Below are positions 25,045 through 56,101 of a DNA stretch of 64,000 nucleotides, in pieces. The stretch is from Felixounavirus LF82P2: sequence record OZ035741.1; one strand, given 5' to 3'. Below the pieces are notes generated by a model that saw nothing but the letters and a program-made list of their open reading frames with translations, searched no databases and was not told the DNA's origin. Position numbers and translations under genes: made by a program. Each line of letters begins with the position of its first letter. Position 1 is the stretch's first letter.

Positions 25045-25301
25045 TTTGTAAACCCTTTCTTAATGAACCAGTTGATGACACTCTTCACAGCTTTATTGCT
25101 ATGGTAGATTAAGTGTGGTGTAGGTTGGTATGAACCATAAGCCCAGAAAGCAATGATTTCATTACACCCTGTACACCTTGTACTCTCTTCAGCGATATGA
25201 CCATTGACTATTTCACTTACCTCACCTTGCAAGTCTGTACATCCACAATGTGGACATCGGATAGGTGTTCCATCAGACTCATAGCAGTGTTCAATTTTCA
25301 T
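25041..25301 (-). CDS. zinc-ribbon protein
   Basis: 86 aa with CPHCGC ... CTGC four-Cys pattern. Confidence 0.45.
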   Translation of the reverse strand: MKIEHCYESDGTPIRCPHCGCTDLQGEVSEIVNGHIAEESTRCTGCNEIIAFWAYGSYQPTPHLIYHSNKAVKSVINWFIKKGFTK

Positions 25302-25817: not shown

Positions 25818-25830
25818 AGTTAATCACCTA

Positions 25831-26190: not shown

Positions 26191-26191
26191 A

Positions 26192-26491
26192 TTAATCTGC
26201 CAACCTTAAATTAAAATTAACACCAAATTTTTCACATACTTCCAACATATACTCAAGGGAGACGTTACCAGTGAGATGGATTATGTTGGATACACGAGCC
26301 TGAGAGATACCACAAATTTTAGCAACTTGCTCTTGAGAAAGACCTCTGGATTTAATCTCTCTCTTAAAACGATGTGCAACGAAATCTCTCATTTCATCTA
26401 CATCCATTGGACAAATATAACTCTCCATTTCAGCCTCTCTATCAGCCTCCCAATCATCTTGTGGAGCATAAGGGTCAAAAATCTCATTCAT
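26192..26491 (-). CDS. HTH (XRE/Cro-like) DNA-binding protein
   Basis: helix-turn-helix LSQEQVAKICGISQARVSNIIH; track start at 26521 is TTG, first ATG at 26491 (MNEIF...) overlaps the stop of the upstream ORF by 8 nt. Confidence 0.6.
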   Translation of the reverse strand: MNEIFDPYAPQDDWEADREAEMESYICPMDVDEMRDFVAHRFKREIKSRGLSQEQVAKICGISQARVSNIIHLTGNVSLEYMLEVCEKFGVNFNLRLAD

Positions 26492-26696
26492 CTTTCTTCT
26501 TCCGTTTGCGTGAAGTGTCAATCAATGAATCTATGTTTGTAGCCCTAACCTTTTCACGTTCATCGTTAAGATAATCGTCAAGAGCCTTTTCAATCTGTGA
26601 ATCATCTTGACAGATGACTGTAAAGACTGTAAATCCGTCTGTATCGTCAATTATCTTACCATAACCGCTTCTGGGATGTAACTTTTTAAGAGCCAT
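26484..26696 (-). CDS. small protein with basic C-terminal tail, coupled to HTH gene
   Basis: 70 aa, C-terminus SRKRKKKDE; stop overlaps the HTH gene start. Confidence 0.4.
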   Translation of the reverse strand: MALKKLHPRSGYGKIIDDTDGFTVFTVICQDDSQIEKALDDYLNDEREKVRATNIDSLIDTSRKRKKKDE

Positions 26697-26697
26697 A

Positions 26698-27081
26698 TCA
26701 AATACCTGTGCAGCTTCTGTTTTCTAAGAAATACTCAACACCATACATAGCTTTTTGCATCAAATCTTCTTTAAACTGGATACGGTGGTTGAGCATAGTT
26801 TGTACATCAATATCGTCATGGTGTTTATCTTTAATATTTGCAGATTGCAGGAAATACTCTGCAAGAACACGATATTGATAGTCAGTTACCTTATCAGTCA
26901 TCTCTGTCAAAGACTCTTCAGAGATTGGTTTAAGTAGCTCACCTTTAGATAGAGCAACACCTTTAACAATCTGGCAAGTGTCTTCTGGGACACCTGATAA
27001 GTCCACATTGGGAAGTTCTGTTGCATTGACTGGTAAATTCATTGCCATAACCATTGCAGCAGCTAATAAAATCTTTTTCAT
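26698..27081 (-). CDS. secreted/periplasmic protein with Sec signal peptide
   Basis: N-terminus MKKILLAAAMVMAMNLPVNA then TE; RBS GAGG 6 nt upstream of ATG at 27081. Confidence 0.5.
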   Translation of the reverse strand: MKKILLAAAMVMAMNLPVNATELPNVDLSGVPEDTCQIVKGVALSKGELLKPISEESLTEMTDKVTDYQYRVLAEYFLQSANIKDKHHDDIDVQTMLNHRIQFKEDLMQKAMYGVEYFLENRSCTGI

Positions 27082-27125
27082 AATGACCTCAAAGTTATAT
27101 TAAATTTTGTATTACGTTGAGTATA

Positions 27126-27171
27126 AAAATAAGCTATAACACCTGACTTGTCAACAGATTTTATAGCTTAT
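27126..27171 (-). promoter_or_regulatory. putative promoter (-35 TTGACA on minus strand) flanked by 10-bp inverted repeat
   Basis: minus-strand TTGACA at 27149-27154, weak -10 TATTTT at 27126-27131; ATAAGCTATA (27129-27138) and TATAGCTTAT (27162-27171) form a perfect inverted repeat. Confidence 0.3.
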
Positions 27172-27189
27172 TTGGCAGATTTTTTATAA

Positions 27190-27430
27190 GGCTACTGCCA
27201 TCCTTCCATACCTTACCTTACCACACCTAACCATACCTAACCAAACTACACCATACAATACCTTGTTAAAAGACCCTTTTAAAGACATTTTAAAAAGGTA
27301 AGTCTCATTTTAATGTAGCTGAGACTAACTACCCTTACCTAACCTTACATCACCTTACAAAGCCAAACCTCACAATACCGAACCATACCTAGCATCACTT
27401 AAAAACCCTCTTAAAAGACTCTTAAATGAT
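27190..27430. repeat. G-depleted (C/A-rich) degenerate tandem repeat region, two ~115-bp units
   Basis: + strand 27199-27264 contains no G (CCTTACC / CCTAACC-type heptamers); second unit 27318-27400 has 3 G; each unit ends with TTAAAAG(A)C-type motifs; noncoding. Confidence 0.5.
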
Positions 27431-27485
27431 GCTGGTGAGTACCCGTTGGTTTATGCTGCTCAGTATACTCACCAAATTTTCTATG

Positions 27486-27674
27486 TCAACAACTTTCTAA
27501 TAAAGTTTTATGAAGATTTTGCTTAACGACCCGCCTCACATGCCTGTGTTCTTTCTTAATAAAGAGTGACCTCTTCTTGTCAGAGCGCCTATTCTTGTAA
27601 GTATTACTAGGATACTTATCATGAACCGGACAACAGCTACCCGGATTTGTAAACTTGATAATCTCTCTTTTCAC
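27486..27674 (-). CDS. small basic protein
   Basis: 62 aa, Arg/Lys-rich, immediately downstream of ligase. Confidence 0.35.
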   Translation of the reverse strand: MKREIIKFTNPGSCCPVHDKYPSNTYKNRRSDKKRSLFIKKEHRHVRRVVKQNLHKTLLESC

Positions 27675-28774
27675 TATTCATAATCCCTAATAACTAGCCC
27701 AACAGGGAACTGTAAAGAACCCTTACGAGTCATCTTCTGGAACTGAACCGTTAAAGGCTTCCCGATAAACTCTTCAGGATGCTCAGCAAGATACTGTTTC
27801 TTCTCGTGTGTAGTTTTCCATGAAACATCTACAAAGACGTTAGGAAGAGTCTCTACAACGAACTTACCATGACCACGCTTATCGGTCTTTACACCAGTCA
27901 CTTTAAACTCTTCAGTGTGCATCTTCTTGTGCTTAATCAAGAAGTATGAACGGTGACAACACTCATAGAAGGAGTCTTCAGAGATTGAACGGTACATTGC
28001 ACCTTCAAACTTAGCTTCAACCCACTTATCATGAGCTTCATCAAACTCTTCCCAAGAATTTACACGGATAGTCTGTACAGGAACAACTCTACAGGTATCC
28101 CCAAGCTCAACAATAGGTGAGTTATCAATAACTTCACGACGCTCAGGCCAAGATTTTGAATTGTCACAGATATCATACCAGTAGAATTTAAGAAGGTGAC
28201 GGTCTGGATTGTCAGCATTCTTAATCATAGATACAATATCTTCTAAGTCCCAACCATGAGCATAAATCTCTCCGTCAAAGTCTTCAACTTGCGGATGTAA
28301 TTTAAGCAACAAAAGCAAATCTGGGATTAGTTCTGTTGGAACGTTGTAAACAGTATTCTCACGAGAATAAGCTGTGAAACTGACTGCATCAGCATCTCTT
28401 GAAATTCTACAACGGACACCATCAAGTTTTGGTTGAGCATCAGCAGGGAACTTCAGATACTTTGCATGACTAACCTTTGCAGCATCATGAGCAAGCTGTA
28501 CACCTACCTTCTCAGTATTCTGTGCAGACTCTTTTGTGTAAGCATAACCTTTGCGGTCAACTTGCTTTTTATACTTAGCAGCAACTTCAAAGAGGGCTTG
28601 CTGTTCAGCGTTACGCTCATTCTTTTTACCGATGTTTTTAGGCTCTGCTGTATACTCTTCAAACATCATCTTGCCATTTTCTTTACCGTAGGTTGTAATA
28701 ACTTTGTCACCTACAGCAACGCATGACCAGACGTTGAAGGAACCGTCTTTATTTTGTTTGTACAGAATTGTCAT
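27674..28774 (-). CDS. ATP-dependent DNA ligase
   Basis: adenylation motif I KLDGVR (PKLDGVRCRI); 366 aa, typical of compact phage ligases. Confidence 0.75.
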   Translation of the reverse strand: MTILYKQNKDGSFNVWSCVAVGDKVITTYGKENGKMMFEEYTAEPKNIGKKNERNAEQQALFEVAAKYKKQVDRKGYAYTKESAQNTEKVGVQLAHDAAKVSHAKYLKFPADAQPKLDGVRCRISRDADAVSFTAYSRENTVYNVPTELIPDLLLLLKLHPQVEDFDGEIYAHGWDLEDIVSMIKNADNPDRHLLKFYWYDICDNSKSWPERREVIDNSPIVELGDTCRVVPVQTIRVNSWEEFDEAHDKWVEAKFEGAMYRSISEDSFYECCHRSYFLIKHKKMHTEEFKVTGVKTDKRGHGKFVVETLPNVFVDVSWKTTHEKKQYLAEHPEEFIGKPLTVQFQKMTRKGSLQFPVGLVIRDYE

Positions 28775-29076
28775 TTTCTCTTACCACCAATCTCTACGTC
28801 GATAACTTGAACATCGCCAGCAACATCAAACTTATGTATGATGCTTTCCACAGTATAAGTCCAACCATCAATGCGAACCATCTCACCTTCTCGTGGAACT
28901 ATTGGATTACGTTGAGCTACAGTTGTAGTGGAGTGAACAACATCATAACGATAGATATAGTTTACTAGGACTTCCATCGTGAAAACCTCACTCAATAACC
29001 GTAGTATGTGATTGTCCATTTTTGCCATAGCTGTAAGATGTTGTTGTTTGAGAGTTTGGACATCTGACAACAACAA
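28771..29076 (-). CDS. hypothetical protein
   Basis: 101 aa ORF; true start uncertain. Confidence 0.3.
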   Translation of the reverse strand: MLLSDVQTLKQQHLTAMAKMDNHILRLLSEVFTMEVLVNYIYRYDVVHSTTTVAQRNPIVPREGEMVRIDGWTYTVESIIHKFDVAGDVQVIDVEIGGKRK

Positions 29077-29224
29077 TATCTCTGCTTATAGCATCACCAT
29101 GTAACTTGTATACTCTGCAATCTTGCATCTCTGGTGGGAGGCTATAAGAAGCATTTTTATCTTCATAAGAAGGGTTGCAGCCAGATAGAAAAATAACACC
29201 AAGCGCAATTACCACTTTCCACAT
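28988..29224 (-). CDS. small lipoprotein (outer-membrane type)
   Basis: internal ATG at 29224 with GGAG 8 nt upstream; signal MWKVVIALGVIFLSG followed by Cys (lipobox LSGC); residue +2 is Asn; mature part about 62 aa with 3 further Cys. Confidence 0.5.
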   Translation of the reverse strand: MWKVVIALGVIFLSGCNPSYEDKNASYSLPPEMQDCRVYKLHGDAISRDIVVVRCPNSQTTTSYSYGKNGQSHTTVIE

Positions 29225-29237
29225 AACACTACTCCTA

Positions 29238-29480
29238 TTACTGTTCACGATGTTCTACTTCTCTGTACGTTCGTCGATAGTATATAATAAGCTGTGCTAA
29301 CTCGTTGCTTTTAACATCTGAACGTAGCAGTTGCCAATCAAAACCTTTACCGACTCTTCCATATAAACTAAACAGTTTTACTTTGCGTTTCATTTTGGTA
29401 TACCAATACTCAGAAGTCAATATTAATACGTTCGCCCTTAAGGACTCCAGTACGGTCTCTTGCAATCTTGCCGTCAACAA
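29238..29480 (-). CDS. hypothetical small protein
   Basis: 80 aa ORF in tightly packed early block. Confidence 0.3.
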   Translation of the reverse strand: MLTARLQETVLESLRANVLILTSEYWYTKMKRKVKLFSLYGRVGKGFDWQLLRSDVKSNELAQLIIYYRRTYREVEHREQ

Positions 29481-29637
29481 TAAGGATATGTGCAGCCCTT
29501 AAAGAGTCACTATTAAAAGCTTTTACGAACTTACTAGGCATCACTACAATGGGCATCTCCTGAATCAACTCTGGAGTATAGCAATTGTCGTGAAGTTGCT
29601 GAATAACGTCTGCAAGTGTCATTTTTGATGTCTCCAA
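29410..29637 (-). CDS. hypothetical small protein
   Basis: 75 aa ORF, overlaps neighbour in a different frame. Confidence 0.3.
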   Translation of the reverse strand: METSKMTLADVIQQLHDNCYTPELIQEMPIVVMPSKFVKAFNSDSLRAAHILIVDGKIARDRTGVLKGERINIDF

Positions 29638-29828
29638 TACTCAATGTCAATAAGTTCTTGTGCAATGCTTTTAAGGTTACCTTTCAAGAAAACCTTCTCA
29701 GAACCTGAAAGAGATGAATTGTCAATTAACCTGTTCATTCTCTCAAACAACTTCTGCTTACGATTTTTGATAGTCTCCTTTGAAGCACCTTTCATCATTG
29801 CTGCATGGGTTCTTCCACGATGGCTCAT
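29619..29828 (-). CDS. hypothetical small basic protein
   Basis: 69 aa ORF, Lys/Arg-rich. Confidence 0.3.
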   Translation of the reverse strand: MSHRGRTHAAMMKGASKETIKNRKQKLFERMNRLIDNSSLSGSEKVFLKGNLKSIAQELIDIEYWRHQK

Positions 29829-29879
29829 AAGCCCTCCTATATAAGATACAGTATAAGGTACTCTTCCATGAGCACCTTG

Positions 29880-30443
29880 TCAACTTAGTTTTGCAAACTC
29901 TCCGTGGAGTTTAATAGCAGCTTCACAGTAAGCTTTATGGGCTTCTTCTGGTGTGTCAAACATACCAAGATGATAGTTTTTACCTTGTAAACGTATCATT
30001 GCTCGAAACCTTTTACTTATCTTCTGTACACCTTTTGGCAACCCAGATGGGGACTTTCTTGACCGATTGCAAGAGTTTTGTGAAGCTGTACAAACCCTTA
30101 AATTCAAGTACCTATTGTCCCAACCGTCCCCATTCTTATGGTCAACCTGTAAGTTTTTATCAGGCAGGTATCCATCCACATATAGTATTGCTAGACGGTT
30201 AGCTTGGTAGCCTTTACCATCAAGCAATAACTGAACAGACTTGTGACCATCTGTGTTTATCCTATAATTTCCTGCCTTTTTACCTCCAAAACGAGAGTTG
30301 AAGTTCTTATTGCCTCGTGATACCGGCTCTCTAAACTTCCAAGTAAAGACCCCTGTTTCGGGGTCGTAGTCCAATAGCTCCTTAAGACGAATTTCTGTAA
30401 TCATTTCAACACCATCAATGTACTTCCAACCAGCTCTTACCAA
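29880..30443 (-). CDS. HNH homing endonuclease with AP2-like DNA-binding domain
   Basis: HNH motif VDHKNGDGWDNRYLNLRVCTASQN; N-terminal YDPETGVFTW shared with paralogue at 39995-40519; overlaps 3' end of DNA polymerase gene. Confidence 0.7.
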   Translation of the reverse strand: MVRAGWKYIDGVEMITEIRLKELLDYDPETGVFTWKFREPVSRGNKNFNSRFGGKKAGNYRINTDGHKSVQLLLDGKGYQANRLAILYVDGYLPDKNLQVDHKNGDGWDNRYLNLRVCTASQNSCNRSRKSPSGLPKGVQKISKRFRAMIRLQGKNYHLGMFDTPEEAHKAYCEAAIKLHGEFAKLS

Positions 30444-33114
30444 CCTTACCTGTGCCAGTTACAAGCGTCTCACTCTTCAAACCTAAATTCTTAGATGCCT
30501 GACCATACATCCAGTCAGTTATGGCTTTCACTTCTTGAGTCATACTTTCTGGACATTCCCAACTGTTTTCATCGTGGTATGCCAGCAAAAGCCTAGCACC
30601 AATTGCTGGTTTTCGTCCATTTAATTTTGTCAACCCTTCTTCACATGCTCTTCTACAAGCAAGGTTAATTGCCTCATTTTGAATCTGAGCCTCCGAACCC
30701 ATGAGCAAATAATTCAATAACTTATGTGGAGATTTACACCACAACCAAGCTCCAGCAACCTTTACGAAGCCACCTTTAGAGATTGCAGCAGTCTTACCAA
30801 ACACCTCTTCAAGTGCCTTTTTAGTTGCTTTGTAGTCAGCTTCCAAGTCATCTAGCAGCTTCTTAATTTTAGGCAAACGAATAAAGTAAGTCTGTTTAGT
30901 CAGTGCACCTTCCTGAGTAGTTGCAGCTTTAATCGTCTTAGCAAACTTCTCATCACCTGCACCGAACAGCAGTGCATAGATACCATTCTTAGCTTTCTTA
31001 CGGCCTTTGCTAATCTCATGGAGGAGGTTCTCATCCTGAGTAGCTCGACAAGTCAAGATGTCCTGCTCATCATTCAAGCTAAAGTAAATACTGTTCAGTG
31101 TATGTGCATCAGTCCCTGAATAGACAACGTACAGGTCATTTTCAGAGTCATAGCGAAGGTACTTATCAATCTCTGGGTTGAGGTACTCATCAAAATGTTT
31201 GCAGTAATAGCGTCCATCTTCTTGACGAATGAACTCAATTTCTTCTTTACCTTGCGTTACCGCTTTGGTGAAGTCCTTATCACCCATAAAGTTACAAAGC
31301 AGAACTAGCTGGGCTGAGTTCATGTCTACAGAGACAACGTTAGTACCTTCCTCACAAATCCACACTGCCCTCATTGGTTCCCCATAGACAGCAGCACCAG
31401 ACGGTACGTTTACAATACCATATTGTGTCATACGTCCAGTTGAAGTACCGAACACCATTGCACCAGCACTAAGGCGACCATCAGGACGAATCTGGTTCAA
31501 CCAACCTTTTTCATCATCCTTTGAGTTCTCAATAGTTCTGCGTCGGTGCATCAAAGTATAGTACTTAGCAATCTTCTGTCCAAGTTCACCTTCAATCGTA
31601 TCATAAGATGATTCAGTAAGTTTTGGTGAAGTACGGATTAAGCAAGGCTCAAGCAAATCTGTGTATTTCTTCACAGACCAGTTATGCTCGATGTACTGGA
31701 CGCCTTCATGCTCGACATAACTCAATCCACACCGTTCTACCATCTCCTGCCACTTAGGATGTTTTGTAATCATCTTTTTATTGTCTTTGAAACGACAAAC
31801 TTTGACAGGGCGACCGTCTGAGTCTTTCTTGTAGTTCCAGTCATCTGGAATCCAACCAACTGATTTCAAGTAGTCTTTTACAACTGCTACCTGAGTCATA
31901 CGAGAAACTTCAAACTCAATTGGTGTATATGGTGCATCAATCAATCCTGTGTAGCGACTTGACTCAAGTTCAAAGTGGTTAACAACGTGGCTGTTATAGT
32001 ACTTCACAGTTTTGACTGTTTTTACTGGCTTCCAGTCTTTGCATTTCTTACCAATCTTTGCGTTCAACTCATTGCAAATTGCACGAGCATCCTTCATTGC
32101 TACAAAGCCTTCCTTGTACTCTTCACCAGTTACAGAGTTGGTTGGTGTATAGCAATTTCTCTTTTCAATGTTAAAAATCTTTGTAGTTGGCTTACCAAAT
32201 GGTTTGATTTCGTATGTCTGCATCTCACCGTTACGCACCTGTTGACGGTACTTCGTCTTAGGATACTTGGTGATTCTCTTCAACCCATCTGCATGACCAA
32301 ATGTTTCAACATACTCATTCCAAGCCTTTGCAAACTCTTCACCAGTTACTTTACCTTTGGTCTTAATAGTTGGAGGTAGATGTGGTTCAACCTCTGAAGC
32401 AAGCTCATTAGTCAACTTGTCAAGTTCCTTTACATGGAACTCCATAAGCTCTTTATCAGCTTTCCAACCATTGATAGCTTGCTGGCTCATCCAGAAAGAT
32501 GTTTCTTTAGCTCGCATGTAGGTTTCATAAGTATCTATGCCACACTTCTTAAGCTTGAGATACTCATTATCAAGTGCCCGTTTAGTTTTGGCGTTAATAC
32601 GGATATCTTCTACAACACGAGTGAAGATTTCTGCATTCCACACACCCCAATGTTCAATCTCTGGTTTACGAACACCAACACGAGCACCCCATGCAGCCAA
32701 ACCATGAGCACCTTTATAACCCTTTGGAGTTGGTCTATCCATCCACTGAACACGAGACTGGATAAGAGAATCCTGAAAGAAATTACTCCACGGTTTACAC
32801 TTTGGGTTATCAAAGTTCCATAAATCAGGTGCAATGTGATTGAAAACCCACCAGTCATAACCGAGACCGTTATGGATGCAAAGACGTTTTGCCTTTAACG
32901 CAAACTCAATACCTTCACGTAAGCCACCCTTGATGTACTTGGTGTACTTGTGACCGAGAATAGGTTCATCTGTAAAGACCCATACAGGTGGCTCTTCATC
33001 GTCAGATTTATAGTCTGCGAAAGCCATTACGTGCACTTTAGTGAACTCAAGGAGTAAACCATCAGTTTCTGTATCACCAACTAAATGTAAGTTTTTAAAA
33101 TCTACGTTTTCCAT
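30415..33114 (-). CDS. DNA polymerase, family A, with 3'-5' exonuclease domain
   Basis: exo motif DTETDGL; Pol A motif A-like VVSVDMNSAQLVLL, motif B-like KNGIYALLFGAG, motif C YHDE; best start ATG at 33114 (MENVDF...) with RBS AGGGAG, track start 33144 is further upstream. Confidence 0.85.
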   Translation of the reverse strand: MENVDFKNLHLVGDTETDGLLLEFTKVHVMAFADYKSDDEEPPVWVFTDEPILGHKYTKYIKGGLREGIEFALKAKRLCIHNGLGYDWWVFNHIAPDLWNFDNPKCKPWSNFFQDSLIQSRVQWMDRPTPKGYKGAHGLAAWGARVGVRKPEIEHWGVWNAEIFTRVVEDIRINAKTKRALDNEYLKLKKCGIDTYETYMRAKETSFWMSQQAINGWKADKELMEFHVKELDKLTNELASEVEPHLPPTIKTKGKVTGEEFAKAWNEYVETFGHADGLKRITKYPKTKYRQQVRNGEMQTYEIKPFGKPTTKIFNIEKRNCYTPTNSVTGEEYKEGFVAMKDARAICNELNAKIGKKCKDWKPVKTVKTVKYYNSHVVNHFELESSRYTGLIDAPYTPIEFEVSRMTQVAVVKDYLKSVGWIPDDWNYKKDSDGRPVKVCRFKDNKKMITKHPKWQEMVERCGLSYVEHEGVQYIEHNWSVKKYTDLLEPCLIRTSPKLTESSYDTIEGELGQKIAKYYTLMHRRRTIENSKDDEKGWLNQIRPDGRLSAGAMVFGTSTGRMTQYGIVNVPSGAAVYGEPMRAVWICEEGTNVVSVDMNSAQLVLLCNFMGDKDFTKAVTQGKEEIEFIRQEDGRYYCKHFDEYLNPEIDKYLRYDSENDLYVVYSGTDAHTLNSIYFSLNDEQDILTCRATQDENLLHEISKGRKKAKNGIYALLFGAGDEKFAKTIKAATTQEGALTKQTYFIRLPKIKKLLDDLEADYKATKKALEEVFGKTAAISKGGFVKVAGAWLWCKSPHKLLNYLLMGSEAQIQNEAINLACRRACEEGLTKLNGRKPAIGARLLLAYHDENSWECPESMTQEVKAITDWMYGQASKNLGLKSETLVTGTGKVGKSWLEVH

Positions 33115-33144
33115 TTTTACTCCCTCTAAAATCATTAACCTCAT

Positions 33145-34669: not shown

Positions 34670-35413
34670 ATGAGTAATATTATAGCATTTACTGGAAAGG
34701 CGCGTTCTGGAAAAGACACCTCATGTTCTATTGTGAAGAACATCTTAGAGGATGAGCACGGCTACAATGTTGCAGTAATGGCCTTTGCAGACAACCTTAA
34801 ACTATCTGCATCAAAGATATTTGACTTGACTTGGAATGACCTGTACGGTGAAACTAAAGAGACTCCGCAGGTATTTGACTTATCATATCATGAACTGATG
34901 TTTAAAGTTACGGAAGCTATGGAGTTCACCTTCAGGGATGAACGTTACCATATGGACTTCAAGCTTATGTCAGAGTTAACCGGACGATTAATCATGGAGC
35001 TTAAGAAGGTTGCTAAACCGACTCTATTGACACGTCTGGGGTTTAGTAAAAAGTATAAATTCTCATCAAGACAAATTCAACAGATTTGGGGTACTGAAGT
35101 TGTCCGTAAAGTAATGGGCGACAAGTTCTGGTCTAAAGACCTTGAAAAAAGAATGGTTAGATTCCATGAAATGTGCTCACTTAGAAATCAATATGGTTTT
35201 GTCTTAATCAGTGATTTAAGATTTGACTCTGAAGCTGAATGGCTGAGTAGATTTGCACACCAAACTATTGAAGTAAAAAGAGACAATGTGGACAAAGTTT
35301 CATCACATGTTTCAGAAAATGGGATTTCTACAAAATATGAGCGTGACATTATTCATAATAATGGTACTCTTGCAGACCTTGAGAACAAGCTAAGAGCCAT
35401 CATTAAAGTTTGA
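34670..35413 (+). CDS. deoxynucleoside monophosphate kinase
   Basis: P-loop FTGKARSGKDT matches T4 gene 1 dNMP kinase N-terminus (SGVKRSGKDT); C-terminal NNGTLADLENK resembles T4 NDGSLEEL. Confidence 0.75.
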   Translation: MSNIIAFTGKARSGKDTSCSIVKNILEDEHGYNVAVMAFADNLKLSASKIFDLTWNDLYGETKETPQVFDLSYHELMFKVTEAMEFTFRDERYHMDFKLMSELTGRLIMELKKVAKPTLLTRLGFSKKYKFSSRQIQQIWGTEVVRKVMGDKFWSKDLEKRMVRFHEMCSLRNQYGFVLISDLRFDSEAEWLSRFAHQTIEVKRDNVDKVSSHVSENGISTKYERDIIHNNGTLADLENKLRAIIKV

Positions 35414-40041: not shown

Positions 40042-40519
40042 AGAATATCTACACTATGACCCCGAAACAGGGGTCTTTACGTGGATAAAGAAATCAGCTA
40101 ACAGAACAGTTATAGGTTCCATTGCAGGTACACCACATAAGCGAGGTTATATTAGGATAAAAATTAAAAGAAAACCCTATATGGCTCATGATTTAGCAAT
40201 CCTGTACACAGACGGTTTCCTACCTAACAGAGTAGACCATCGCAACGGTATTACTAATGATAATCGGAGATTAAATCTAAGGGTTTGCACACAAGCTGAA
40301 AACTCTTGGAATAGAAGAACACACTCCAACAACACATCTGGAGTTAAGGGTGTATCTTTCTATAAGGCTAACCAAAAATGGAAGGCCAGAGTTATGACAC
40401 ACGGAGTATCTCACTTTCTGGGGTATTTTGACAGTATTGAAGATGCCAAAGATGCAGTCACAAAGAAAAGAGAAGAACTACATAAAGAGTTTTCAAATCA
40501 CGGAGAAGCTTATGAATGA
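39995..40519 (+). CDS. HNH homing endonuclease with AP2-like domain
   Basis: HNH motif VDHRNGITNDNRRLNLRVCTQAEN; YDPETGVFTW shared with the 29880-30443 paralogue; overlaps 3' end of upstream gene. Confidence 0.7.
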   Translation: MKSMVGLQMLTQQILKEYLHYDPETGVFTWIKKSANRTVIGSIAGTPHKRGYIRIKIKRKPYMAHDLAILYTDGFLPNRVDHRNGITNDNRRLNLRVCTQAENSWNRRTHSNNTSGVKGVSFYKANQKWKARVMTHGVSHFLGYFDSIEDAKDAVTKKREELHKEFSNHGEAYE

Positions 40520-41013
40520 AGATTAAAGGATTTGGCAATTGCCCCACCTATGGTCATTGGGTATCTTTATGTGGGGAAGTTGACCCCACTAAACATTTTG
40601 GCTTTGTCTATTTAGTACACTGTAAGAAGACTGGACAATATTATATCGGAAAGAAACAGCTTAATAGTGTGACTAAAAGAAAAGTTGCTGGCAAGACTCG
40701 GAAGAAGGTAGTCACTAAGGAGAGTGATTGGATGACTTATGAGACTTCTTCTGAGTATATCAAAAAAGATATTGAAAGCTTTGGAAAAGAATCTTTTGAC
40801 TTTTATATTATTCAAACCTACTACACGAAAGGTGGTCTAGTTTATGGTGAAGCAAACCTCCAACATAAATTCGATGTAATGACAAAAAGGATTGACTCTA
40901 AGCTCAGACTCTTCTACAATGCCAATATTGCAGCAATTAAGTTTATTACTAAAGAAACTTATGAAGATGCTGAAAAAAGAATCCATAAGGTAATGAAAGC
41001 AAATTGTGCTTGA
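40516..41013 (+). CDS. GIY-YIG family endonuclease
   Basis: N-terminal FGFVYLVHCKKTGQYYIGKKQ matches GIY-x10-YIG architecture. Confidence 0.5.
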   Translation: MKIKGFGNCPTYGHWVSLCGEVDPTKHFGFVYLVHCKKTGQYYIGKKQLNSVTKRKVAGKTRKKVVTKESDWMTYETSSEYIKKDIESFGKESFDFYIIQTYYTKGGLVYGEANLQHKFDVMTKRIDSKLRLFYNANIAAIKFITKETYEDAEKRIHKVMKANCA

Positions 41014-46802: not shown

Positions 46803-48947
46803 ATGAACAAAGTACAGATTATTAAAAAGAATGGCTCACTTGAAGAACCTGATATCAAAAAAGTTTTAGCAGCAGTCACAAAGTCAGCTAACAGAGTTGG
46901 TTATAAAGAGCTTCCACCAGATGTTACTCAAGCTCTTGAGTCAGCATTTATGAGGATTCTGGTAAAGTCCACTAAACAGAATAATTTGCTAATTTCGGTA
47001 AATGATATTCACAGTATTGTTGAGGGTGCTTTGGCAGAAGTCAATCACGAGATTTATGAGTCTTACTCAACATATAGAAATTACCGTAAAGAGGTTGCTC
47101 AAAATTGGGATGAACTCTACCAGAAGACCAAAGATACACTCTTCTTAGGCGACCGAGAAAACGCTAATTTTGACAGCAGTTTAATTTCTACAAAAGGCTC
47201 AATTATTCGTGGTTACCTGACTAAAGAAATCTTTAAACAGTACCATTTAACACCAGAGGAACTTGAAGCCATTGAAAAAGGATTTATCTATATCCATGAT
47301 TTAAGAGACCTAATTTTTGGTGGTATCAACTGTTGCCTGTTTGACATTGGTAAAGTCCTGAAAGGTGGCTTTGAAATGTCTGGCATCGAATATTGTGAAC
47401 CGAAGTCTGTGCTGTCAGCCTTACAGGTTATTGGTGATGTAGTTCTTTCAGCAACTGCACAGCAATTTGGTGGCTTTACTTTAGCAGAGATTGATAAGGT
47501 ACTTGTACCGTATGCTAAGAAGTCTCTACGCTATCATGCTGAGAAAGCAGCATCTTATGGTATTCCTAAAGAACATTACCATAATTATGTCATGGAGCAG
47601 CTACAGATTGAATTAACTCAAGGTTTTCAGTCACTTGAAATGAAACTGAACACTGTACCTTGCAGCCGTGGTGATTTCGCATTCACAACTTTAACATTTG
47701 GGTTGCTCGACTCAGATATGTCTAATGAAGACAACCGACTACAATACATGATTGCAAGTACTCTCCTAGATGTTCGTATGAATGGACAAGGTAAGAGCAA
47801 GAAGCCTGTTGTATTTCCTAAACTGGTTTATATTTATGACCAGAAGAGACATGATGAAAATATCTGTCAAGGTCACCTGTACAGTAAAGCTATTGAGTGT
47901 TGCTCTAAAGCAATGTATCCAGATTTCTTAAGTGTATCTGGTCATGGTGCTGTAGCAGAGGCTTTTGAGCGTTCTGGCAAGGTTATTTCGCCGATGGGTT
48001 GCCGAGCGTTCTTATCTCCGTATCTTAACGAGAATGGGGAAGAGTTCTACGTTGGTCGTGCTAACATTGGTGCTGTATCTTTGAACTTACCAATGATTTA
48101 CCAGTATTCTAAAGAGAATGGTTTAGATTTCTGGAAAGAGCTTGATAAGTACCTAGAAATGATTCGCAGCTTCCACAAGAAACGCTACGAAATGATTGCT
48201 AATATGCCAGCAAGTTCTAACCCTCTTGCATTCACGCAAGGTGGTCTGTACAAAGGGACTAAGAAGCCTACTGATAAGGTTGGTTGGGATATCGTGAAAT
48301 CTTTCACAGCCTCTTTTGGGGTTACTGCTCTTGATGAGTTGTCTGTTCTTGCTGAGGGTAAACGACTCCATGAAGTTGGAAGCTGTAGTTTTGCATATGA
48401 TGTTCTGGCATACATTAACATGAAAACTGAAGAGTTTAAGAACGAAGATGGCTTCTTGTATGCGGTATATGGCACTCCAGCAGAGTCATTGTGTGGAACT
48501 CAGCTAAAACAGTTCAGAGATATGTTTGGTGTTATTAAAGGCGTTTCTGACAAGGAATACTTTACAAACAGTTTCCATATGAATGTTGCAGCAAACATCT
48601 CACCATTTGAGAAGCAGGACTTAGAAGAGCCATTCTTCCATATCTGTAGAGGTGGCAGAATCCAGTATGTAAGGGTAGCTAACCCAGAAAACTTACCAGC
48701 ACTTAAAAGTTGTATTACCAGAGGGATGTTGAAGGGTTTTTATCAGGGACTTAACTTTGACTTAGCAATCTGTGAACATTGTGGTAACAGACCAAAGGCT
48801 GATGTTGAAGAATGTGAGGTTTGTCATTCACACGATATCTCTGTGATTAACAGGGTGTGCGGGTACTTGTCATTCACAAAAATTAAAGGTCAGTCTCGAA
48901 TGAATGACGCTAAGATGGCAGAAATTAAGGATAGGGTTTCTATGTAG
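46803..48947 (+). CDS. nrdD: anaerobic ribonucleoside-triphosphate reductase (class III)
   Basis: C-terminal Zn-ribbon CEHCG ... CEVCH and glycyl-radical motif RVCGYL. Confidence 0.9.
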   Translation: MNKVQIIKKNGSLEEPDIKKVLAAVTKSANRVGYKELPPDVTQALESAFMRILVKSTKQNNLLISVNDIHSIVEGALAEVNHEIYESYSTYRNYRKEVAQNWDELYQKTKDTLFLGDRENANFDSSLISTKGSIIRGYLTKEIFKQYHLTPEELEAIEKGFIYIHDLRDLIFGGINCCLFDIGKVLKGGFEMSGIEYCEPKSVLSALQVIGDVVLSATAQQFGGFTLAEIDKVLVPYAKKSLRYHAEKAASYGIPKEHYHNYVMEQLQIELTQGFQSLEMKLNTVPCSRGDFAFTTLTFGLLDSDMSNEDNRLQYMIASTLLDVRMNGQGKSKKPVVFPKLVYIYDQKRHDENICQGHLYSKAIECCSKAMYPDFLSVSGHGAVAEAFERSGKVISPMGCRAFLSPYLNENGEEFYVGRANIGAVSLNLPMIYQYSKENGLDFWKELDKYLEMIRSFHKKRYEMIANMPASSNPLAFTQGGLYKGTKKPTDKVGWDIVKSFTASFGVTALDELSVLAEGKRLHEVGSCSFAYDVLAYINMKTEEFKNEDGFLYAVYGTPAESLCGTQLKQFRDMFGVIKGVSDKEYFTNSFHMNVAANISPFEKQDLEEPFFHICRGGRIQYVRVANPENLPALKSCITRGMLKGFYQGLNFDLAICEHCGNRPKADVEECEVCHSHDISVINRVCGYLSFTKIKGQSRMNDAKMAEIKDRVSM

Positions 48948-49518
48948 AATACAAATGAATTACGAACTAATATATAATGCAATTATTAAAAAGGCACATT
49001 CTGAAAGGGGTGTGCCTCTCACATACTACAAATGTCAAGGTAAGGGTTATGAAAGACACCATATCATACCAGTATGTCTAGGTGGCGATAAAATTAGTGG
49101 AGATAACATTGCTTTACTTACACCTAGAGAGCATTATATAGCTCATAAATTACTGGTTAAGATGTATCCAAACAATCATAAGTTATGGTTTGCATGGAGC
49201 AGGTTAGCTCATGATGGCCTAGATAGGAAAATATCATCCAGAGACTATGAAAAGGTAAGGGCTTTAAACTCGAAAGCTCTATCGATTGTGAATAAAGGTA
49301 GGGTTTTCACTGAAGAGCATCGAAGACGATTAGGAGAAGTTCAAATAGGTAATACAAAGTCAAAAGGTTGTAAAAGGTCTATGGAAACAAGGAAGAAGAT
49401 GTCAGAAGCCGGAAAAAAGCCAAAGAAAAAGAAAACTTGCCCGCATTGTGGCATGACTGGTGGTGCTGGTAACATGACTCGATATCATTTTGACAATTGT
49501 AAGAAAAAAAAAAAATAA
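48904..49518 (+). CDS. HNH homing endonuclease
   Basis: HNH-like RHHIIPVCLGGDKISGDNIALLTPREH; alternative start ATG 48955; ORF ends in Lys run encoded by A12 tract (49504-49515). Confidence 0.6.
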   Translation: MTLRWQKLRIGFLCRIQMNYELIYNAIIKKAHSERGVPLTYYKCQGKGYERHHIIPVCLGGDKISGDNIALLTPREHYIAHKLLVKMYPNNHKLWFAWSRLAHDGLDRKISSRDYEKVRALNSKALSIVNKGRVFTEEHRRRLGEVQIGNTKSKGCKRSMETRKKMSEAGKKPKKKKTCPHCGMTGGAGNMTRYHFDNCKKKKK

Positions 49519-52157: not shown

Positions 52158-52183
52158 AGGGAACTGTAAAGGTTCCCTTTTTA
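52158..52183 (+). terminator. intrinsic terminator
   Basis: AGGGAAC-TGTAAAG-GTTCCCT then TTTTT. Confidence 0.6.
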
Positions 52184-52196: not shown

Positions 52197-52712
52197 ATGT
52201 ATCTGTCAAACCTGAAACGTTCGGCTGCAATGTCAGTTCTAAGACTCAGCTTTGAGGAACGTCAAGAATTTATAGACTCCCACAAATATGACCCTTCAAA
52301 TTCTAATCACATGGTTCTTTGGAATCGTGATAACTTCCGTGAAAGAGCACTTGTCCGTTATTACCCACACTACACAATAGATAACCTGTATGAATGGTGT
52401 GTTGTGAAGAACACCATTGCAACACTGAACAATCTTTGCAGGTATACGGGTAAGCAAACATTTACACTAGGCCACCACAAACCTGTTACAAAAGGTGGTG
52501 AACATCACTGTGCGAACTGGTTTATCCAAACTAAAGCTGATAACCAGAAGCAAGGAGATAGCCTCCTAAGTATCCCTAAGATGACCTATGAAGAGCAAGA
52601 GAAATATATCAAAAATAATATGCCAGATGTGCTTGACAACAACTATACAGATTTGGCAATATCTCTCCTGTTGAAGTTCGAGACAGTTTATAGGGCAACT
52701 TATAATGGCTAA
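52197..52712 (+). CDS. HNH-like endonuclease (putative)
   Basis: His/Asn-containing segment LGHHKPVTKGGEHHCANWFIQTKADNQKQG compatible with an HNH motif. Confidence 0.4.
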   Translation: MYLSNLKRSAAMSVLRLSFEERQEFIDSHKYDPSNSNHMVLWNRDNFRERALVRYYPHYTIDNLYEWCVVKNTIATLNNLCRYTGKQTFTLGHHKPVTKGGEHHCANWFIQTKADNQKQGDSLLSIPKMTYEEQEKYIKNNMPDVLDNNYTDLAISLLLKFETVYRATYNG

Positions 52713-52983
52713 AGAAAAGTGGGAGATTTTACCATTAGTCAGTGAAGGAGGTAATGGTTGTGAAATGTACATGATACGTGGTCATGTTCCAGAGCCAATT
52801 GCACTTGAGATGGTAAACAACTTTACAGATGGTTCTTACAAAGACTTAGGCGAACCAACTGTCAAGCAACAATGGGTTAAACCTGTACCAGACAGCACAG
52901 GTAACTGTAGTGTACTTTATCACGTTGTAGACCCTGCAAAATGCAAATCTGCAATGGCAGTAACAAACGTAACTTTTGATTGA
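52705..52983 (+). CDS. hypothetical protein
   Basis: 92 aa ORF. Confidence 0.3.
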   Translation: MAKEKWEILPLVSEGGNGCEMYMIRGHVPEPIALEMVNNFTDGSYKDLGEPTVKQQWVKPVPDSTGNCSVLYHVVDPAKCKSAMAVTNVTFD

Positions 52984-53876
52984 GAGAGAAAACTATGAAA
53001 ACATCTATCCGTGTTACAGTTCATTCACCAACTAAAGGGACTCATGAAGAAGAGTTTAACATCGTCCAATTCCCTTCTGGTGAGATTGGTGGACACTTTT
53101 CGCCAGAGTTTGTTGATTTTACTGCTTATGCAGCATCATCCATCAACAATGTGATTATGATTGTAAAAGGTTATGACAAGGACACATTGTTTGCTGTGGC
53201 ACTTGCTAAAGAAGCAATTGATGATTTAATTCCTCATGATTATGCTTTAAAGACTGTCATCTTTTACTACTTACCAAATGCACGATATGACCGTCACATG
53301 TTTAAAGGTGACGCAGCAGCTTTAAAGGTTTTTGCTAAACAGATTAATGCAATGGGATTTGGCGCAGTCTGTGCAGTTGACCCTCACAGTTATGTACCAG
53401 ATAACCTGTTTAACTGCTTCCAAAGTATTCCTCAAAAGGAGATTGCAGTCCACTATGCAAATGACCCTCTAATTGATTACTTAGTAGCCCCAGATGCAGG
53501 TGCTGCTAAGAAGATTGCAGAGACTGCTAAAGAGGTGGATAAACCATACATCACAATGTCTAAAGTGCGTAACCTTAAGACTGGTGAAATTACTGGTATG
53601 CGAATCCTTGATGATGTTGATTTGACAGATAAAACCGTCATGATTCTGGATGATATCTGTGATGGTGGTCGAACCTTCATAGAAGCAGCGAAGCATCTTC
53701 GTGAAGCAGGTGCAAAACGTGTGGAACTTTATGTAACACATGGTATCTTCTCTAAAGATGTTGAAAACCTTCTTGACAATGGTATCGACCATATTTACAC
53801 TACAAACTCTTTAGGCGAAGCTAAAGACCGTGGCTTAACACATTACAGTCAAGTTACTGTAGCAAACCTTGATTGA
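52980..53876 (+). CDS. ribose-phosphate pyrophosphokinase homologue (Prs-like; possibly ADP-ribose pyrophosphokinase)
   Basis: aligns by eye with E. coli Prs: AVDPHS vs TVDLHA, VAPDAGA vs VSPDIGG, PRPP loop VMILDDICDGGRT, AGAKRVELYVTHGIFS vs GAKRVFAYATHPIFS. Confidence 0.8.
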   Translation: MREKTMKTSIRVTVHSPTKGTHEEEFNIVQFPSGEIGGHFSPEFVDFTAYAASSINNVIMIVKGYDKDTLFAVALAKEAIDDLIPHDYALKTVIFYYLPNARYDRHMFKGDAAALKVFAKQINAMGFGAVCAVDPHSYVPDNLFNCFQSIPQKEIAVHYANDPLIDYLVAPDAGAAKKIAETAKEVDKPYITMSKVRNLKTGEITGMRILDDVDLTDKTVMILDDICDGGRTFIEAAKHLREAGAKRVELYVTHGIFSKDVENLLDNGIDHIYTTNSLGEAKDRGLTHYSQVTVANLD

Positions 53877-53885
53877 AAGTTTATA

Positions 53886-53906
53886 GGGGCTTAAAAGCCC
53901 CATTTT
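53886..53906 (+). terminator. hairpin (weak terminator/attenuator) between Prs-like and NAMPT-like genes
   Basis: GGGGC-TTAAAA-GCCCC followed by ATTTTG. Confidence 0.35.
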
Positions 53907-53921
53907 GAGAGAGATTAAAAG

Positions 53922-55703
53922 ATGACTAAATCACTTTATGCAGTACCAGCAGGTTTAAACGCAGATGCTTACAAATCTGGTCATGTTTACCAGTACCCTA
54001 GTGCAACAGAGTACTTGATGTTCAACCTGACACCACGTAGTGACAAATGGTTTAACAGCCCCTTAGCAATTGATGGTGTAGTAGCTTTTGGTATTCAACG
54101 TTTCGTTAAAGATTACTTGATAGACCACTGGAACGCCACTTTCTTTGAACGTGATAAAAAAGAAGCCATTGATGAAATCTTAGAAGTCATGAATGGTGTT
54201 CTGGGTAAAGATGCTATCAGTCGAGAGCATTGGGAAGCACTTCACGACTTAGGTTATCTACCAGTTGAAGTATACGCTGTAGAAGAAGGTACAGTTGTCC
54301 CTATGCGTGTCCCAATGATTGTTTTCCAGAACACTGTTTCAGGTTTCCATTGGGTAGCAGGTTATCTGGAAGATGCTTTCTCTGCTGAGATTTGGAAGGC
54401 TTGTACCATTGCAACTATTGCATTGCACTACAAACGTATCTGTAAGAAGTGGGCTGACCTTACTTGTGACAACGACTTACATTTGCCTTATCAGTGCCAT
54501 GACTTTGCTATGCGTGGTATGTCCGGCTTTACTGATGACGCATTTAACGCTGTAGGCCACTTAACCAGCTTTAAAGGAACTGATAGCTTCCCTGCTGTGT
54601 ATACGGCTAAACGAATCTATGGACAGTCCTACCCAATCTCTGATATTGGTAGCTCTGTACCAGCCACTGAGCACTCTGTAATGTGTGCAAACATTGCTTG
54701 GGAAGGTGGTAATGAGTTGATTGAAGAAGAAAGACGCTTTAAAGGTGAGTTACAAACCTTCCGTCGTTTCTTAACAGAAACTTACCCAACTGGTATTGCA
54801 AGTATTGTTTCAGATACTTATAACTTCTGGAGAACTGTGTCAGAAATCTTACCAGCACTCCGTAAAGAAATTATGGAACGTGATGGTAAACTGGTAATTC
54901 GCCCTGACTCTGGAGACCCTGTACATATTGTCACAGGTTATAAAGCAATCCACTTAGAGTGTGCTAAAAAGGCTTATTACGAGCACCTAAGCAAGCTTGA
55001 AGCCAGCGACACAATGTTGAATGCTGTTCTGAACATGAAGCTTGAAAACATCAATTATGGTATTGCTGGATGGCTACTGTCAGAAGGCTACGAAATGGTT
55101 GTTGACAGAGAAGACTTTGAAGTTGCTGATACAGTGCTGTTGAAAAATGCTTATATGGTTGGTTCTGCAAACGTTGTAACACGTCCTGTAGCGGAGATTG
55201 ATGGAGCTATCAAGACACTGTATAACATCTTTGGAGGAACTATCAACTCTAAAGGTTTTAAAGTACTGGATGAGCATATCGGGCTTATTTATGGCGACTC
55301 TATCACGCTGGAACGTGCAAACGAAATACTGAAGCGTTTGTATGAAATGGGTTTTGCAAGCTCTAACGTAGTGTTTGGTGTAGGTTCTTACACTTACCAG
55401 TACATGACTCGTGACACCTTTGCATTTGCTGTCAAAGCAACTCTTGCAAGCATTGGTGGTAAAGAGATTATGCTTGCAAAAGACCCTAAAACAGATAGTG
55501 GTGTTAAGAAATCTGCCTTTGGTGGTGTAGCACCTATGTGGGATGGTGATAAGCTGAAAGCTGTAGATGGCTATGGATTCCAGAGTTTTGCAGATGTACT
55601 TGACCACCCAGCTTGTGCTTTACGTTTAGTCTTTAGCGACTCTGAGCAGTTTGGTTACACAACTCTTGGGGATATTCGAAATAATATTGACAAGCAGCTT
55701 TAA
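53922..55703 (+). CDS. nicotinamide phosphoribosyltransferase homologue (NAMPT-like)
   Basis: aligns by eye with human NAMPT: NADAYKSGHVYQYP vs ATDSYKVTHYKQYP, CHDFAMRGMSG vs LHDFGYRGVSS, HLTSFKGTDS vs HLVNFKGTDT, SVPATEHS vs SVPAAEHS, IVSDTYN vs VVSDSYD, LVIRPDSGDP vs LIIRPDSGNP. Confidence 0.85.
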   Translation: MTKSLYAVPAGLNADAYKSGHVYQYPSATEYLMFNLTPRSDKWFNSPLAIDGVVAFGIQRFVKDYLIDHWNATFFERDKKEAIDEILEVMNGVLGKDAISREHWEALHDLGYLPVEVYAVEEGTVVPMRVPMIVFQNTVSGFHWVAGYLEDAFSAEIWKACTIATIALHYKRICKKWADLTCDNDLHLPYQCHDFAMRGMSGFTDDAFNAVGHLTSFKGTDSFPAVYTAKRIYGQSYPISDIGSSVPATEHSVMCANIAWEGGNELIEEERRFKGELQTFRRFLTETYPTGIASIVSDTYNFWRTVSEILPALRKEIMERDGKLVIRPDSGDPVHIVTGYKAIHLECAKKAYYEHLSKLEASDTMLNAVLNMKLENINYGIAGWLLSEGYEMVVDREDFEVADTVLLKNAYMVGSANVVTRPVAEIDGAIKTLYNIFGGTINSKGFKVLDEHIGLIYGDSITLERANEILKRLYEMGFASSNVVFGVGSYTYQYMTRDTFAFAVKATLASIGGKEIMLAKDPKTDSGVKKSAFGGVAPMWDGDKLKAVDGYGFQSFADVLDHPACALRLVFSDSEQFGYTTLGDIRNNIDKQL

Positions 55704-55717
55704 AAGTATATGATAAG

Positions 55718-55739
55718 AGGCTCCTACGGGAGCCTTTTT
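55718..55739 (+). terminator. intrinsic terminator
   Basis: AGGCTCC-TACG-GGAGCCT then TTTTT. Confidence 0.65.
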
Positions 55740-55753
55740 AATTTCTGGAGAAG

Positions 55754-56101
55754 ATGATGGATAGCCTTTCTATATGGTTTAACAAGAAACCTGTGCAACC
55801 AAAATACTTACAAGTTGCCTATACAGACATCCTTGAAGTTCTCGGTAAAGAAAAGTTTGAAAAGTTTTGTGAAGGTATCTACAATCACCACTGCCAATTT
55901 GCTACAAAAGAAGGTATGTTTGTCATAGAACAATTCTTTGGCAGAGACCCAGATGACTATGAAGAGATTAGCTTTGTAATGAAATACATGATAGATTATA
56001 TTGAAAATCGTGGATTCGAAGTTAATCCTGAGTTTTATGAACATGAGGGTGTACCTTTAGCAAAAGGTTTTGATGGTATACTCGTTAACTGGACTTGGTG
56101 A
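55754..56101 (+). CDS. hypothetical protein
   Basis: 115 aa ORF. Confidence 0.35.
   Translation: MMDSLSIWFNKKPVQPKYLQVAYTDILEVLGKEKFEKFCEGIYNHHCQFATKEGMFVIEQFFGRDPDDYEEISFVMKYMIDYIENRGFEVNPEFYEHEGVPLAKGFDGILVNWTW

Follow-up and report, generated by a model that had tools for sequence, protein, structure and literature searches.

In the 64,000-nucleotide stretch of Felixounavirus LF82P2 DNA that we analyzed (sequence record OZ035741.1; hereafter, the window), two adjacent genes on the plus strand resemble enzymes of NAD+ metabolism. An initial annotation, made from the sequence alone, had described them as a homolog of ribose-phosphate pyrophosphokinase (Prs) followed by a homolog of nicotinamide phosphoribosyltransferase (NAMPT), and had proposed that they form a phage module that rebuilds NAD+ as a counter-defense. 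Our comparisons indicate that they very probably form a core NARP1 (NAD+ reconstitution pathway 1) operon, and we use the gene names of that system:

52995..53876, plus strand: adps, encoding ADP-ribose pyrophosphate synthetase (PRPS-like), 293 aa, matching PHROG 619 and Bas63 gp79
53922..55703, plus strand: namat, encoding nicotinamide ADP-ribose transferase (NAMPT-like), 593 aa, matching Bas63 gp80

The open reading frame (ORF) listing and profile searches bore out the identity, adjacency and strand of the pair. Adps matched Pfam Pribosyltran (1.3e-11) and Pribosyl_synth (4.5e-10) and PHROG 619, "ribose-phosphate pyrophosphokinase" (2.3e-97), while Namat matched Pfam NAPRTase (5.9e-35) and NAMPT_N (1.7e-05) and PHROG 448 (1.3e-201). 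The binding loop for phosphoribosyl pyrophosphate (PRPP) that the initial annotation quoted, VMILDDICDGGRT, lies in the first ORF. Its span for the pair, 52980-55703, stands as to the end and the strand; the start needs to be moved. The mechanically called adps ORF opens at TTG 52980, which overlaps the stop codon of an upstream 92-aa gene and sits within the motif TTGAGAGAGA, an exact copy of which recurs 17 nt ahead of the namat ATG. Because translation from ATG 52995 gives a product of 293 aa, the length of the annotated homologs in four Ounavirinae genera, among them Felixounavirus, Suspvirus and Mooglevirus, we preferred this codon to TTG 52980 and placed adps at 52995-53876. The window holds three exact copies of the 10-mer TTGAGAGAGA, two of which (52980-52989 and 53905-53914) precede the start codons of adps and namat by 15 and 17 nt, respectively. 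Allowing one mismatch gave 18 matches in the window against 8.4 expected. The placement of the motif ahead of both start codons suggests a shared translation-initiation region.

The NARP1 system is already known from genetic work on a sister phage in the same genus. It was found by deleting genes 79-80 of Felixounavirus Bas63 (Osterman et al. 2024, bioRxiv 10.1101/2024.02.11.579819), which reduced plating on cells carrying the SIR2-HerA defense about 20-fold. In that study, NAD+ was higher during infection when the operon was present, the operon was active in a pncC nadR double-deletion host, and ADP-ribose (ADPR) pyrophosphate (ADPR-PP) was seen only with both the operon and the defense present and was lost on deletion of genes 79-80. 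The Bas63 protein purified poorly, and enzymology was done with the SPbetaL1 homologs instead: SPbetaL1 Adps pyrophosphorylates ADPR and yielded no product when assayed as a Prs, and SPbetaL1 Namat joins ADPR-PP and nicotinamide to form NAD+, preferring ADPR-PP over PRPP (Osterman et al. 2024). The chemistry has been followed in vitro with the SPbetaL1, ICP1, DyoEdafos and P. foliorum enzymes and, for Bas63, by in vivo metabolomics.

LF82P2 belongs close to Bas63. Megablast of positions 52700-56100 returned 257 phage records, almost all Felixounavirus, that is, FelixO1-like myoviruses of E. coli, Salmonella, Shigella and Citrobacter; the best record was 96.9% identical, and Escherichia phage JohannRWettstein, which is BASEL phage Bas63, was 91.7% identical. 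A 25-kb query gave the same Felixounavirus-dominated result. LF82P2 Namat is identical to Bas63 gp80 at 587 of 593 positions (99.0%), and LF82P2 Adps to Bas63 gp79 at 228 of 293 (77.8%). The likeness to the Bas63 NARP1 genes (bas63_0079-0080) extends to gene order, to protein lengths of 293 and 593 aa, to a 45-nt adps-namat spacer with the same hairpin stem, to the downstream terminator and to the neighboring genes, from nrdG through rIIA/rIIB. The two operons differ in the N-terminal half of Adps, which is another allele in LF82P2 over 52995-53450.

From this orthology and the motifs described below, we put the probability that the two genes are a functional core NARP1 operon of Felixounavirus at about 0.92, in support of the NAD+ reconstitution module that the initial annotation proposed. 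We read the genes, their orthology, the motifs, the absence of partner genes and the operon boundaries in the LF82P2 DNA; the chemistry and the counter-defense phenotype come from the literature on the orthologs. LF82P2 Adps would convert ADPR and ATP to ADPR-PP and AMP, and on Namat nicotinamide would displace the pyrophosphate of ADPR-PP to yield NAD+ and pyrophosphate. NAD+ would be regenerated directly, with neither a nicotinamide mononucleotide (NMN) intermediate nor an NMN adenylyltransferase. The initial annotation had described the same division of labor for NARP1, with the Prs homolog acting on ADPR and the NAMPT homolog joining the product to nicotinamide, in agreement with Osterman et al. 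(2024). It had also held that sequence alone cannot tell NARP1 from canonical salvage. Here it was too cautious, as a published Namat signature and published Adps residues can be read from sequence, and LF82P2 has both.

In Namat, the SCH adenine-clamp signature GSxΦxΦxΦTRD takes the form GSYTYQYMTRD (aa 488-498), with an aromatic residue at both position 3 and position 7 and with Met at Φ3, which is usually Asn or Val. The same site reads GSFTYQYNTRD in SPbetaL1 Namat, GAQTYQRNTRD in HdNadV (H. ducreyi NadV, 9ke8) and GGALLQKVDRD in Xanthomonas (Xcc) Nampt; canonical Nampt is without an adenine clamp (Lan et al. 2026, PMC12774641). The variable clamp loop (SCL), TPRSDKWF, carries Lys42 followed by Trp43 and is identical to that of Bas63. 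The third SCL residue is Arg, Lys or Tyr, and if it is Lys or Tyr, the fourth residue stacks, as Lan et al. modeled for Bas63 Namat. The Lys-Trp pair suggests that the LF82P2 loop likewise supplies the stacking residue.

The rest of the Namat active site also fits. Residues D15, Y17, F195, R198, D221, H251, R327 and D329 of the Nampt-like core are invariant in 31 homologs and align in structure 9w5x with the reference residues of SPbetaL1 Namat (D13, Y15, F189, R192, D215, the catalytic His, R306 and D308). SPbetaL1 Namat, whose structures 9W5W and 9W5X were solved by Lan et al. (2026), is the closest solved relative (9w5x/9w5w; phmmer, 1.7e-128). An AlphaFold2 model of LF82P2 Namat scored 93.2 for predicted local distance difference test (pLDDT) and 0.91 for predicted template modeling (pTM), and in Foldseek its target TM was 0.95 to SPbetaL1 Namat, 0.93-0.94 to HdNadV and 0.88-0.91 to mammalian NAMPT. 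LF82P2 and SPbetaL1 Namat thus share the catalytic core, the SCH adenine-clamp motif and a superposable fold. The SPbetaL1 enzyme differs in being 491 aa long, with neither of the two insertions described below, and in stacking through SCL Arg40, where LF82P2 has Lys-Trp.

For Adps, eight catalytic and acceptor residues of the ICP1 enzyme, for which crystal and cryo-EM structures are available (Liu et al. 2026, PMC13586617), were compared by alignment, and all eight (F18, R87, H121, D161, K185, D212, D213 and D216) are conserved in LF82P2. E. coli Prs shares most of them; they therefore speak for an intact active site and not for specificity. The only positions that discriminate Adps from Prs lie in the PP loop, at 214, 215, 217 and 221 (ICP1 numbering). 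This loop reads I-C-D-G-G-R-T-F in LF82P2, as in other Adps proteins, and M-I-D-T-G-G-T-L in E. coli Prs. Two further ICP1 residues are not kept: F223, which caps the donor, is Glu in LF82P2, and F92, which contacts adenine, is replaced by Met, with a Phe one position later. Bas63, which is functional in vivo, has the same substitutions, and the active DyoEdafos Adps likewise conserves neither residue, the loop with F92 being absent from it. These two residues are thus not family-wide.

Adps also lacks parts of Prs. In the alignment, it is without the N-terminal helix segment and the C-terminal region of E. coli Prs; Adps is missing one 12-residue segment of E. coli Prs and stops 8 residues short of it. 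Absence of the PRPS C-terminal alpha11-alpha12 regulatory/filament module is a feature of Adps (Liu et al. 2026). Pfam Pribosyltran_N had no match in LF82P2 Adps. On the NCBIfam subfamily model TIGR01251 (cut-off 113), LF82P2 Adps scored 124.8 bits over aa 87-292 only, the C-terminal two-thirds, and it passed none of the NCBIfam Prs equivalog models (cut-offs ≥296), with a best score of 104.7 bits. As controls, E. coli Prs scored 422.7 bits on TIGR01251 and 532.6 bits on NF002320, and the biochemically verified ICP1 Adps scored 98.0 bits on TIGR01251 and ≤80.1 bits on the stricter Prs models. The profile searches that the initial annotation had suggested as a check returned the expected Pfam and PHROG families and left LF82P2 Adps below every Prs equivalog cut-off. 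ICP1 and LF82P2 Adps have in common the eight active-site residues, the PP-loop Cys215 and Phe221 and the missing PRPS C-terminal regulatory helices; they differ in F92 and F223, and their overall identity is 31%. Adps-clade genes have a Namat homolog in their immediate neighborhood in 97% of cases (Osterman et al. 2024). Curated-model scores, pairwise identities and gene linkage together place the first enzyme with the phage Adps clade and not with canonical Prs, as far as sequence can assign it.

These comparisons bear on the most conventional alternative, in which ribose-5-phosphate is turned into PRPP by the Prs-like enzyme, PRPP and nicotinamide are joined to NMN by the NAMPT-like one, and the synthesis of NAD+ is finished by host NadR or PncC/NadD. 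Database names favor such salvage, as the Pfam, PHROG and NCBIfam labels are all Prs and NAMPT/NAPRTase, and Namat, with 469 bits, clears the cut-off of 405 for NF006629, the NCBIfam equivalog "nicotinate phosphoribosyltransferase". SPbetaL1 Namat, moreover, forms NMN from PRPP in vitro. The first enzyme, however, fails every Prs equivalog and is without the Prs terminal segments, the second has an adenine clamp that is not found in canonical Nampt, and the purified SPbetaL1 Adps made nothing in the Prs-type assay. The Bas63 operon also works without pncC and nadR, and ADPR-PP appears only with the operon. Given the equivalog scores, the motifs and the published double-deletion result, we rejected canonical Prs/NAMPT salvage, which we regard as exceedingly improbable.

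Several points nevertheless weigh against a functional NARP1 operon in LF82P2. The published in vitro biochemistry consulted here used the SPbetaL1, ICP1, DyoEdafos and Gary homologs and no Felixounavirus enzyme, and the LF82P2 proteins share only 29-39% (Adps) and 42-47% (Namat) identity with these homologs. The Adps N-terminal half, source of the adenine-contacting residues, is only 65.6% identical to that of Bas63, and ICP1 F92 aligns with the Met noted above. The PRPP-to-NMN activity that SPbetaL1 Namat keeps in vitro also means that some canonical salvage is possible. Our remaining doubt concerns the Adps allele and the step from those in vitro homologs to Felixounavirus enzymes.

NARP1 is one of several phage routes to NAD+, and the genes around the pair bear on which variant LF82P2 carries. 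Later work has described extended NARP1 operons with a Macro-domain phosphatase (Adpp) or a RyR-domain glycosidase (RyDEP), as well as NARP3. We scanned for Pfam domains the ten neighboring genes and, from 23.5 to 63.5 kb, 40 non-structural ORFs at least 60 aa long; the structural genes at 1-23.5 kb, ORFs of <60 aa and six large genes lay outside the scan, the last being named by eye from sequence (DNA polymerase, primase-helicase, NrdA, NrdB, NrdD and rIIA). Neither the ten flanking genes nor the 40 ORFs yielded a CTP_transf_like (NMNAT), NUDIX, Macro or RyR domain, and in the ten neighbors Macro and RyR had no Pfam match even at E ≤1. For the genes and ORFs scanned, this upholds the earlier observation that no NMN adenylyltransferase is evident in the window.

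With neither an NMNAT nor a NUDIX domain among the ORFs scanned, we rejected NARP2. The KVP40-type NARP2 (Nampt + Nmnat/Nudix) resembles the LF82P2 pair in restoring NAD+ against NAD+-depleting immunity and in using a NAMPT-family enzyme, but the LF82P2 NAMPT homolog has the Namat clamp instead of a canonical sequence. NARP3 (PnuC + NadR) shares the restoration of NAD+ against such immunity. The NARP1-AP operon of Vibrio phage Gary (with Adpp) and the DyoEdafos operon (with RyDEP) contain the same Adps and Namat core but carry a third gene between adps and namat, where the LF82P2 spacer holds only a hairpin. As the ORFs scanned gave no Macro or RyR domain and only 45 nt separate adps from namat, we rejected both of these extended forms as well. 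By its gene content, the LF82P2 operon is a plain two-gene NARP1 core.

The difference from Bas63 within Adps is confined to one block, which a sliding-window comparison with Bas63 delimited as follows:

52995..53450, plus strand: diverged allelic block covering the Adps N-terminal domain

This block begins at the adps start codon, aligns with Bas63 without gaps at 58-76% DNA identity, and is flanked by sequence that is 93-99% identical. At the protein level, the C-terminal half of Adps is 92.5% identical to that of Bas63, against the 65.6% given above for the N-terminal half. Over the N-terminal half, Bas63 Adps in turn shares only about 77% identity with the Michonne and phiSUSP1 proteins, and therefore at least three N-domain alleles circulate: an LF82P2 type, a Bas63 type and a Michonne/phiSUSP1 type. 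The N-domains of the three types are 66-77% mutually identical, and the C-terminal halves 86-97%. Among phage records, Adps is ≥90% identical to the LF82P2 type in about 154 and 60-80% identical in about 94.

Might the swapped N-domain, perhaps with the Namat insertion, adapt NARP1 to a modified (phosphorylated or cyclic) ADPR made by certain defenses, in place of plain ADPR? The N-terminal half contacts the adenine and proximal ADPR in ICP1, and it is 34% different from Bas63 where Namat is 99% identical; in addition, some defenses are known to evade NARP1 by way of ADPR-1''-phosphate or cyclic ADPR (cADPR), to which phages respond with added enzymes. Several observations make a shifted acceptor very improbable. 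The ligand-contacting residues of ICP1 Adps that are kept in Bas63 are all kept in LF82P2, and Namat, which must take the Adps product, is essentially that of Bas63. The LF82P2-type allele is the commoner one and so more likely to be the standard form than a specialist, and phages are known to counter modified ADPR with additional genes, Macro Adpp and RyDEP, neither of which occurs in the ORFs scanned. By analogy with Bas63, the LF82P2 Adps allele, despite its unlike N-terminal domain, probably has the same activity as part of a functional NARP1 operon.

The initial annotation had noted, correctly, that the NAMPT homolog exceeds cellular NAMPT by about 100 aa. Namat and NAMPT chains with solved structures run to 482-501 aa, and two insertions account for the excess in LF82P2:

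54693..54737, plus strand: small Namat insertion, aa ~258-272, after the catalytic-His motif EHSVMCANI
54945..55202, plus strand: large Namat insertion subdomain, aa ~342-427, after RPDSGDPVHIVTGY, with a predicted ordered alpha/beta fold

The small insertion (~15 aa) does not occur in SPbetaL1, ICP1, Gary, DyoEdafos or HdNadV, and the large one (~85 aa), which starts about 10 residues past the ribose-binding RPDSGD strand, does not occur in SPbetaL1, ICP1, DyoEdafos or the canonical enzymes. At the site of the large one, a shorter insertion that opens with a similar TGY...YYE motif is present in Gary Namat, an enzyme that works in vivo. In 31 homologs, both sites are hot spots of variable length (0 to ~40 aa and 0 to ~115 aa), and the long form of Namat reaches Ounavirinae-like phages with identities as low as about 46%. 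Within the full-length model, the large insertion is predicted as beta-alpha-alpha-alpha-beta-beta-alpha-beta with pLDDT 92-97; modeled alone, it scored pLDDT 94.3 and pTM 0.83. It is confidently predicted to be an autonomously folding subdomain of about 85 aa. Among 1.84 billion representatives, the subdomain had no sequence relative outside Namats, and no fold relatives were detected. Since Bas63 carries the insertion and Bas63 NARP1 works, the insertion is compatible with function. It is not discussed in the text of Lan et al. (PMC12774641).

That NARP1 of Ounavirinae is more than a two-enzyme pathway, with the Namat subdomain and the independently recombining Adps N-domain alleles being adaptive, seems to us rather unlikely. 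If they are adaptive, they could reflect adaptation to a host factor, such as a defense that senses or inhibits NARP1 enzymes; alternatively, they could serve as a regulatory lid or in the hand-off of substrate between Adps and Namat. The two insertions with the subdomain, the allelic swap of the Adps N-domain, and the hairpin and homing-endonuclease site in the spacer, to which we turn below, appear to be undescribed. We regard the subdomain, the alleles and the spacer site as modest leads, not discoveries.

The operon lies in a transcription unit whose probable limits, spacer element and upstream genes are:

52158..52178, plus strand: terminator-like hairpin and T-run found in a terminator scan, an 8-pair stem followed by TTTTATTTTG
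52197..52712, plus strand: 171-aa gene, phrog_3500 (6e-93, unknown function), with a weak match to an HNH-endonuclease PHROG (2.3e-06)
52705..52983, plus strand: 92-aa gene, phrog_4726 (3.7e-60, unknown function), directly upstream of adps
53886..53901, plus strand: spacer hairpin, a 6-bp stem with 5 G-C pairs and a tetraloop, followed by AUUUUG
55715..55738, plus strand: intrinsic terminator closing the operon, a 10-pair stem and T-run (-17.2 kcal/mol, z -3.1)

The hairpin and T-run at 55715-55738 are identical in Bas63, Michonne and phiSUSP1, and the Michonne annotation calls them "terminator". The sequence at 52158-52178 is kept in Bas63 and Michonne, and the homologous Michonne site is again annotated "terminator"; the transcription unit to which the operon belongs is probably bounded upstream by this site. 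Four genes lie between the two terminator sites: the 171-aa gene, the 92-aa gene, adps and namat. The last two are separated by the 45-nt spacer, lie on the same strand and have a common terminator. The 171-aa and 92-aa genes are conserved and syntenic in Bas63, phiSUSP1 and Michonne, the synteny spanning four Ounavirinae genera, and, judging by this layout, may be co-transcribed with the NARP1 genes. The former has no significant Pfam domain and the latter no Pfam match, and neither PHROG nor Pfam linked them to NAD+ metabolism.

The initial annotation had noted a weak hairpin without a strong U-tract between adps and namat, which might allow differential expression, and we found it at 53886-53901. 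Its 4-U tract does not reach the T-run criterion of the terminator scan, and the centroid fold has an energy of -11.5 kcal/mol (z = -2.7). Bas63 and Mooglevirus Michonne keep the stem, GGGGCT/AGCCCC, but differ in its loop and flanking bases; the stem is invariant in the three genomes that have the hairpin, leaving no covariation to assess. It could plausibly act as a partial terminator or an RNA-stability element. Over the whole 64 kb, ARAGORN detected no tRNA gene and no Rfam family reached the gathering threshold.

The adps-namat spacer of phiSUSP1 and of several Felixounaviruses contains a homing endonuclease gene and is thus a landing site for such endonucleases in relatives. Co-conversion around this site could, as a speculation, explain why the 3' half of adps is homogenized, unlike the 5' half. 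LF82P2 has three homing-endonuclease-like genes or ORFs elsewhere in the window: an HNH_3 + AP2 gene at 29880-30443 (minus strand) beside the DNA polymerase gene, a SegE-type GIY-YIG gene at 40516-41013 (plus strand), and a NUMOD3 ORF at 48904-49518 (plus strand) that overlaps the 3' end of nrdD. The Bas63 annotation gives nrdD as a join of two pieces.

Public records, PHROGs, Pfam and NCBIfam still name the two proteins ribose-phosphate pyrophosphokinase and nicotinamide/nicotinate phosphoribosyltransferase, whereas the experimentally supported names are Adps and Namat, and the genes form a counter-defense operon. Because Namat passes NF006629, annotation pipelines will keep misnaming it. Homologs of about 495 aa with the Namat motif are present in Klebsiella, Cronobacter and Erwinia chromosomes, where they are labeled nicotinate phosphoribosyltransferase.

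The assignment also yields a phenotype prediction for a group of phages used in typing, biocontrol and therapy. By analogy with its orthologs, the operon is predicted to confer resistance to NAD+ depletion by SIR2-HerA, DSR1/2, type I Thoeris, SEFIR and Kongming-type systems. Following the reasoning in the literature, the phage should withstand defenses whose product is plain ADPR. The aRES defense yields ADPR-1''-phosphate, and because no Adpp phosphatase occurs in the ORFs scanned, we infer that LF82P2 would be sensitive to aRES-type defense. Kongming is triggered via a phage deoxynucleoside monophosphate (dNMP) kinase and then depletes NAD+ (Lan et al. 2026). A deoxynucleotide monophosphate kinase gene (Pfam DNMK, 1.1e-19) lies at 34670-35413, and LF82P2 may, speculatively, carry both the trigger of Kongming and its NARP1 remedy.

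Away from the operon, a block of minus-strand genes at 23598-33144 lies between plus-strand genes, and the GC skew reverses at about 24 kb and about 33.5 kb. The block encodes thymidylate synthase, DHFR, a helix-turn-helix protein, an ATP-dependent DNA ligase, an HNH endonuclease and a putative DNA polymerase of 909 aa.

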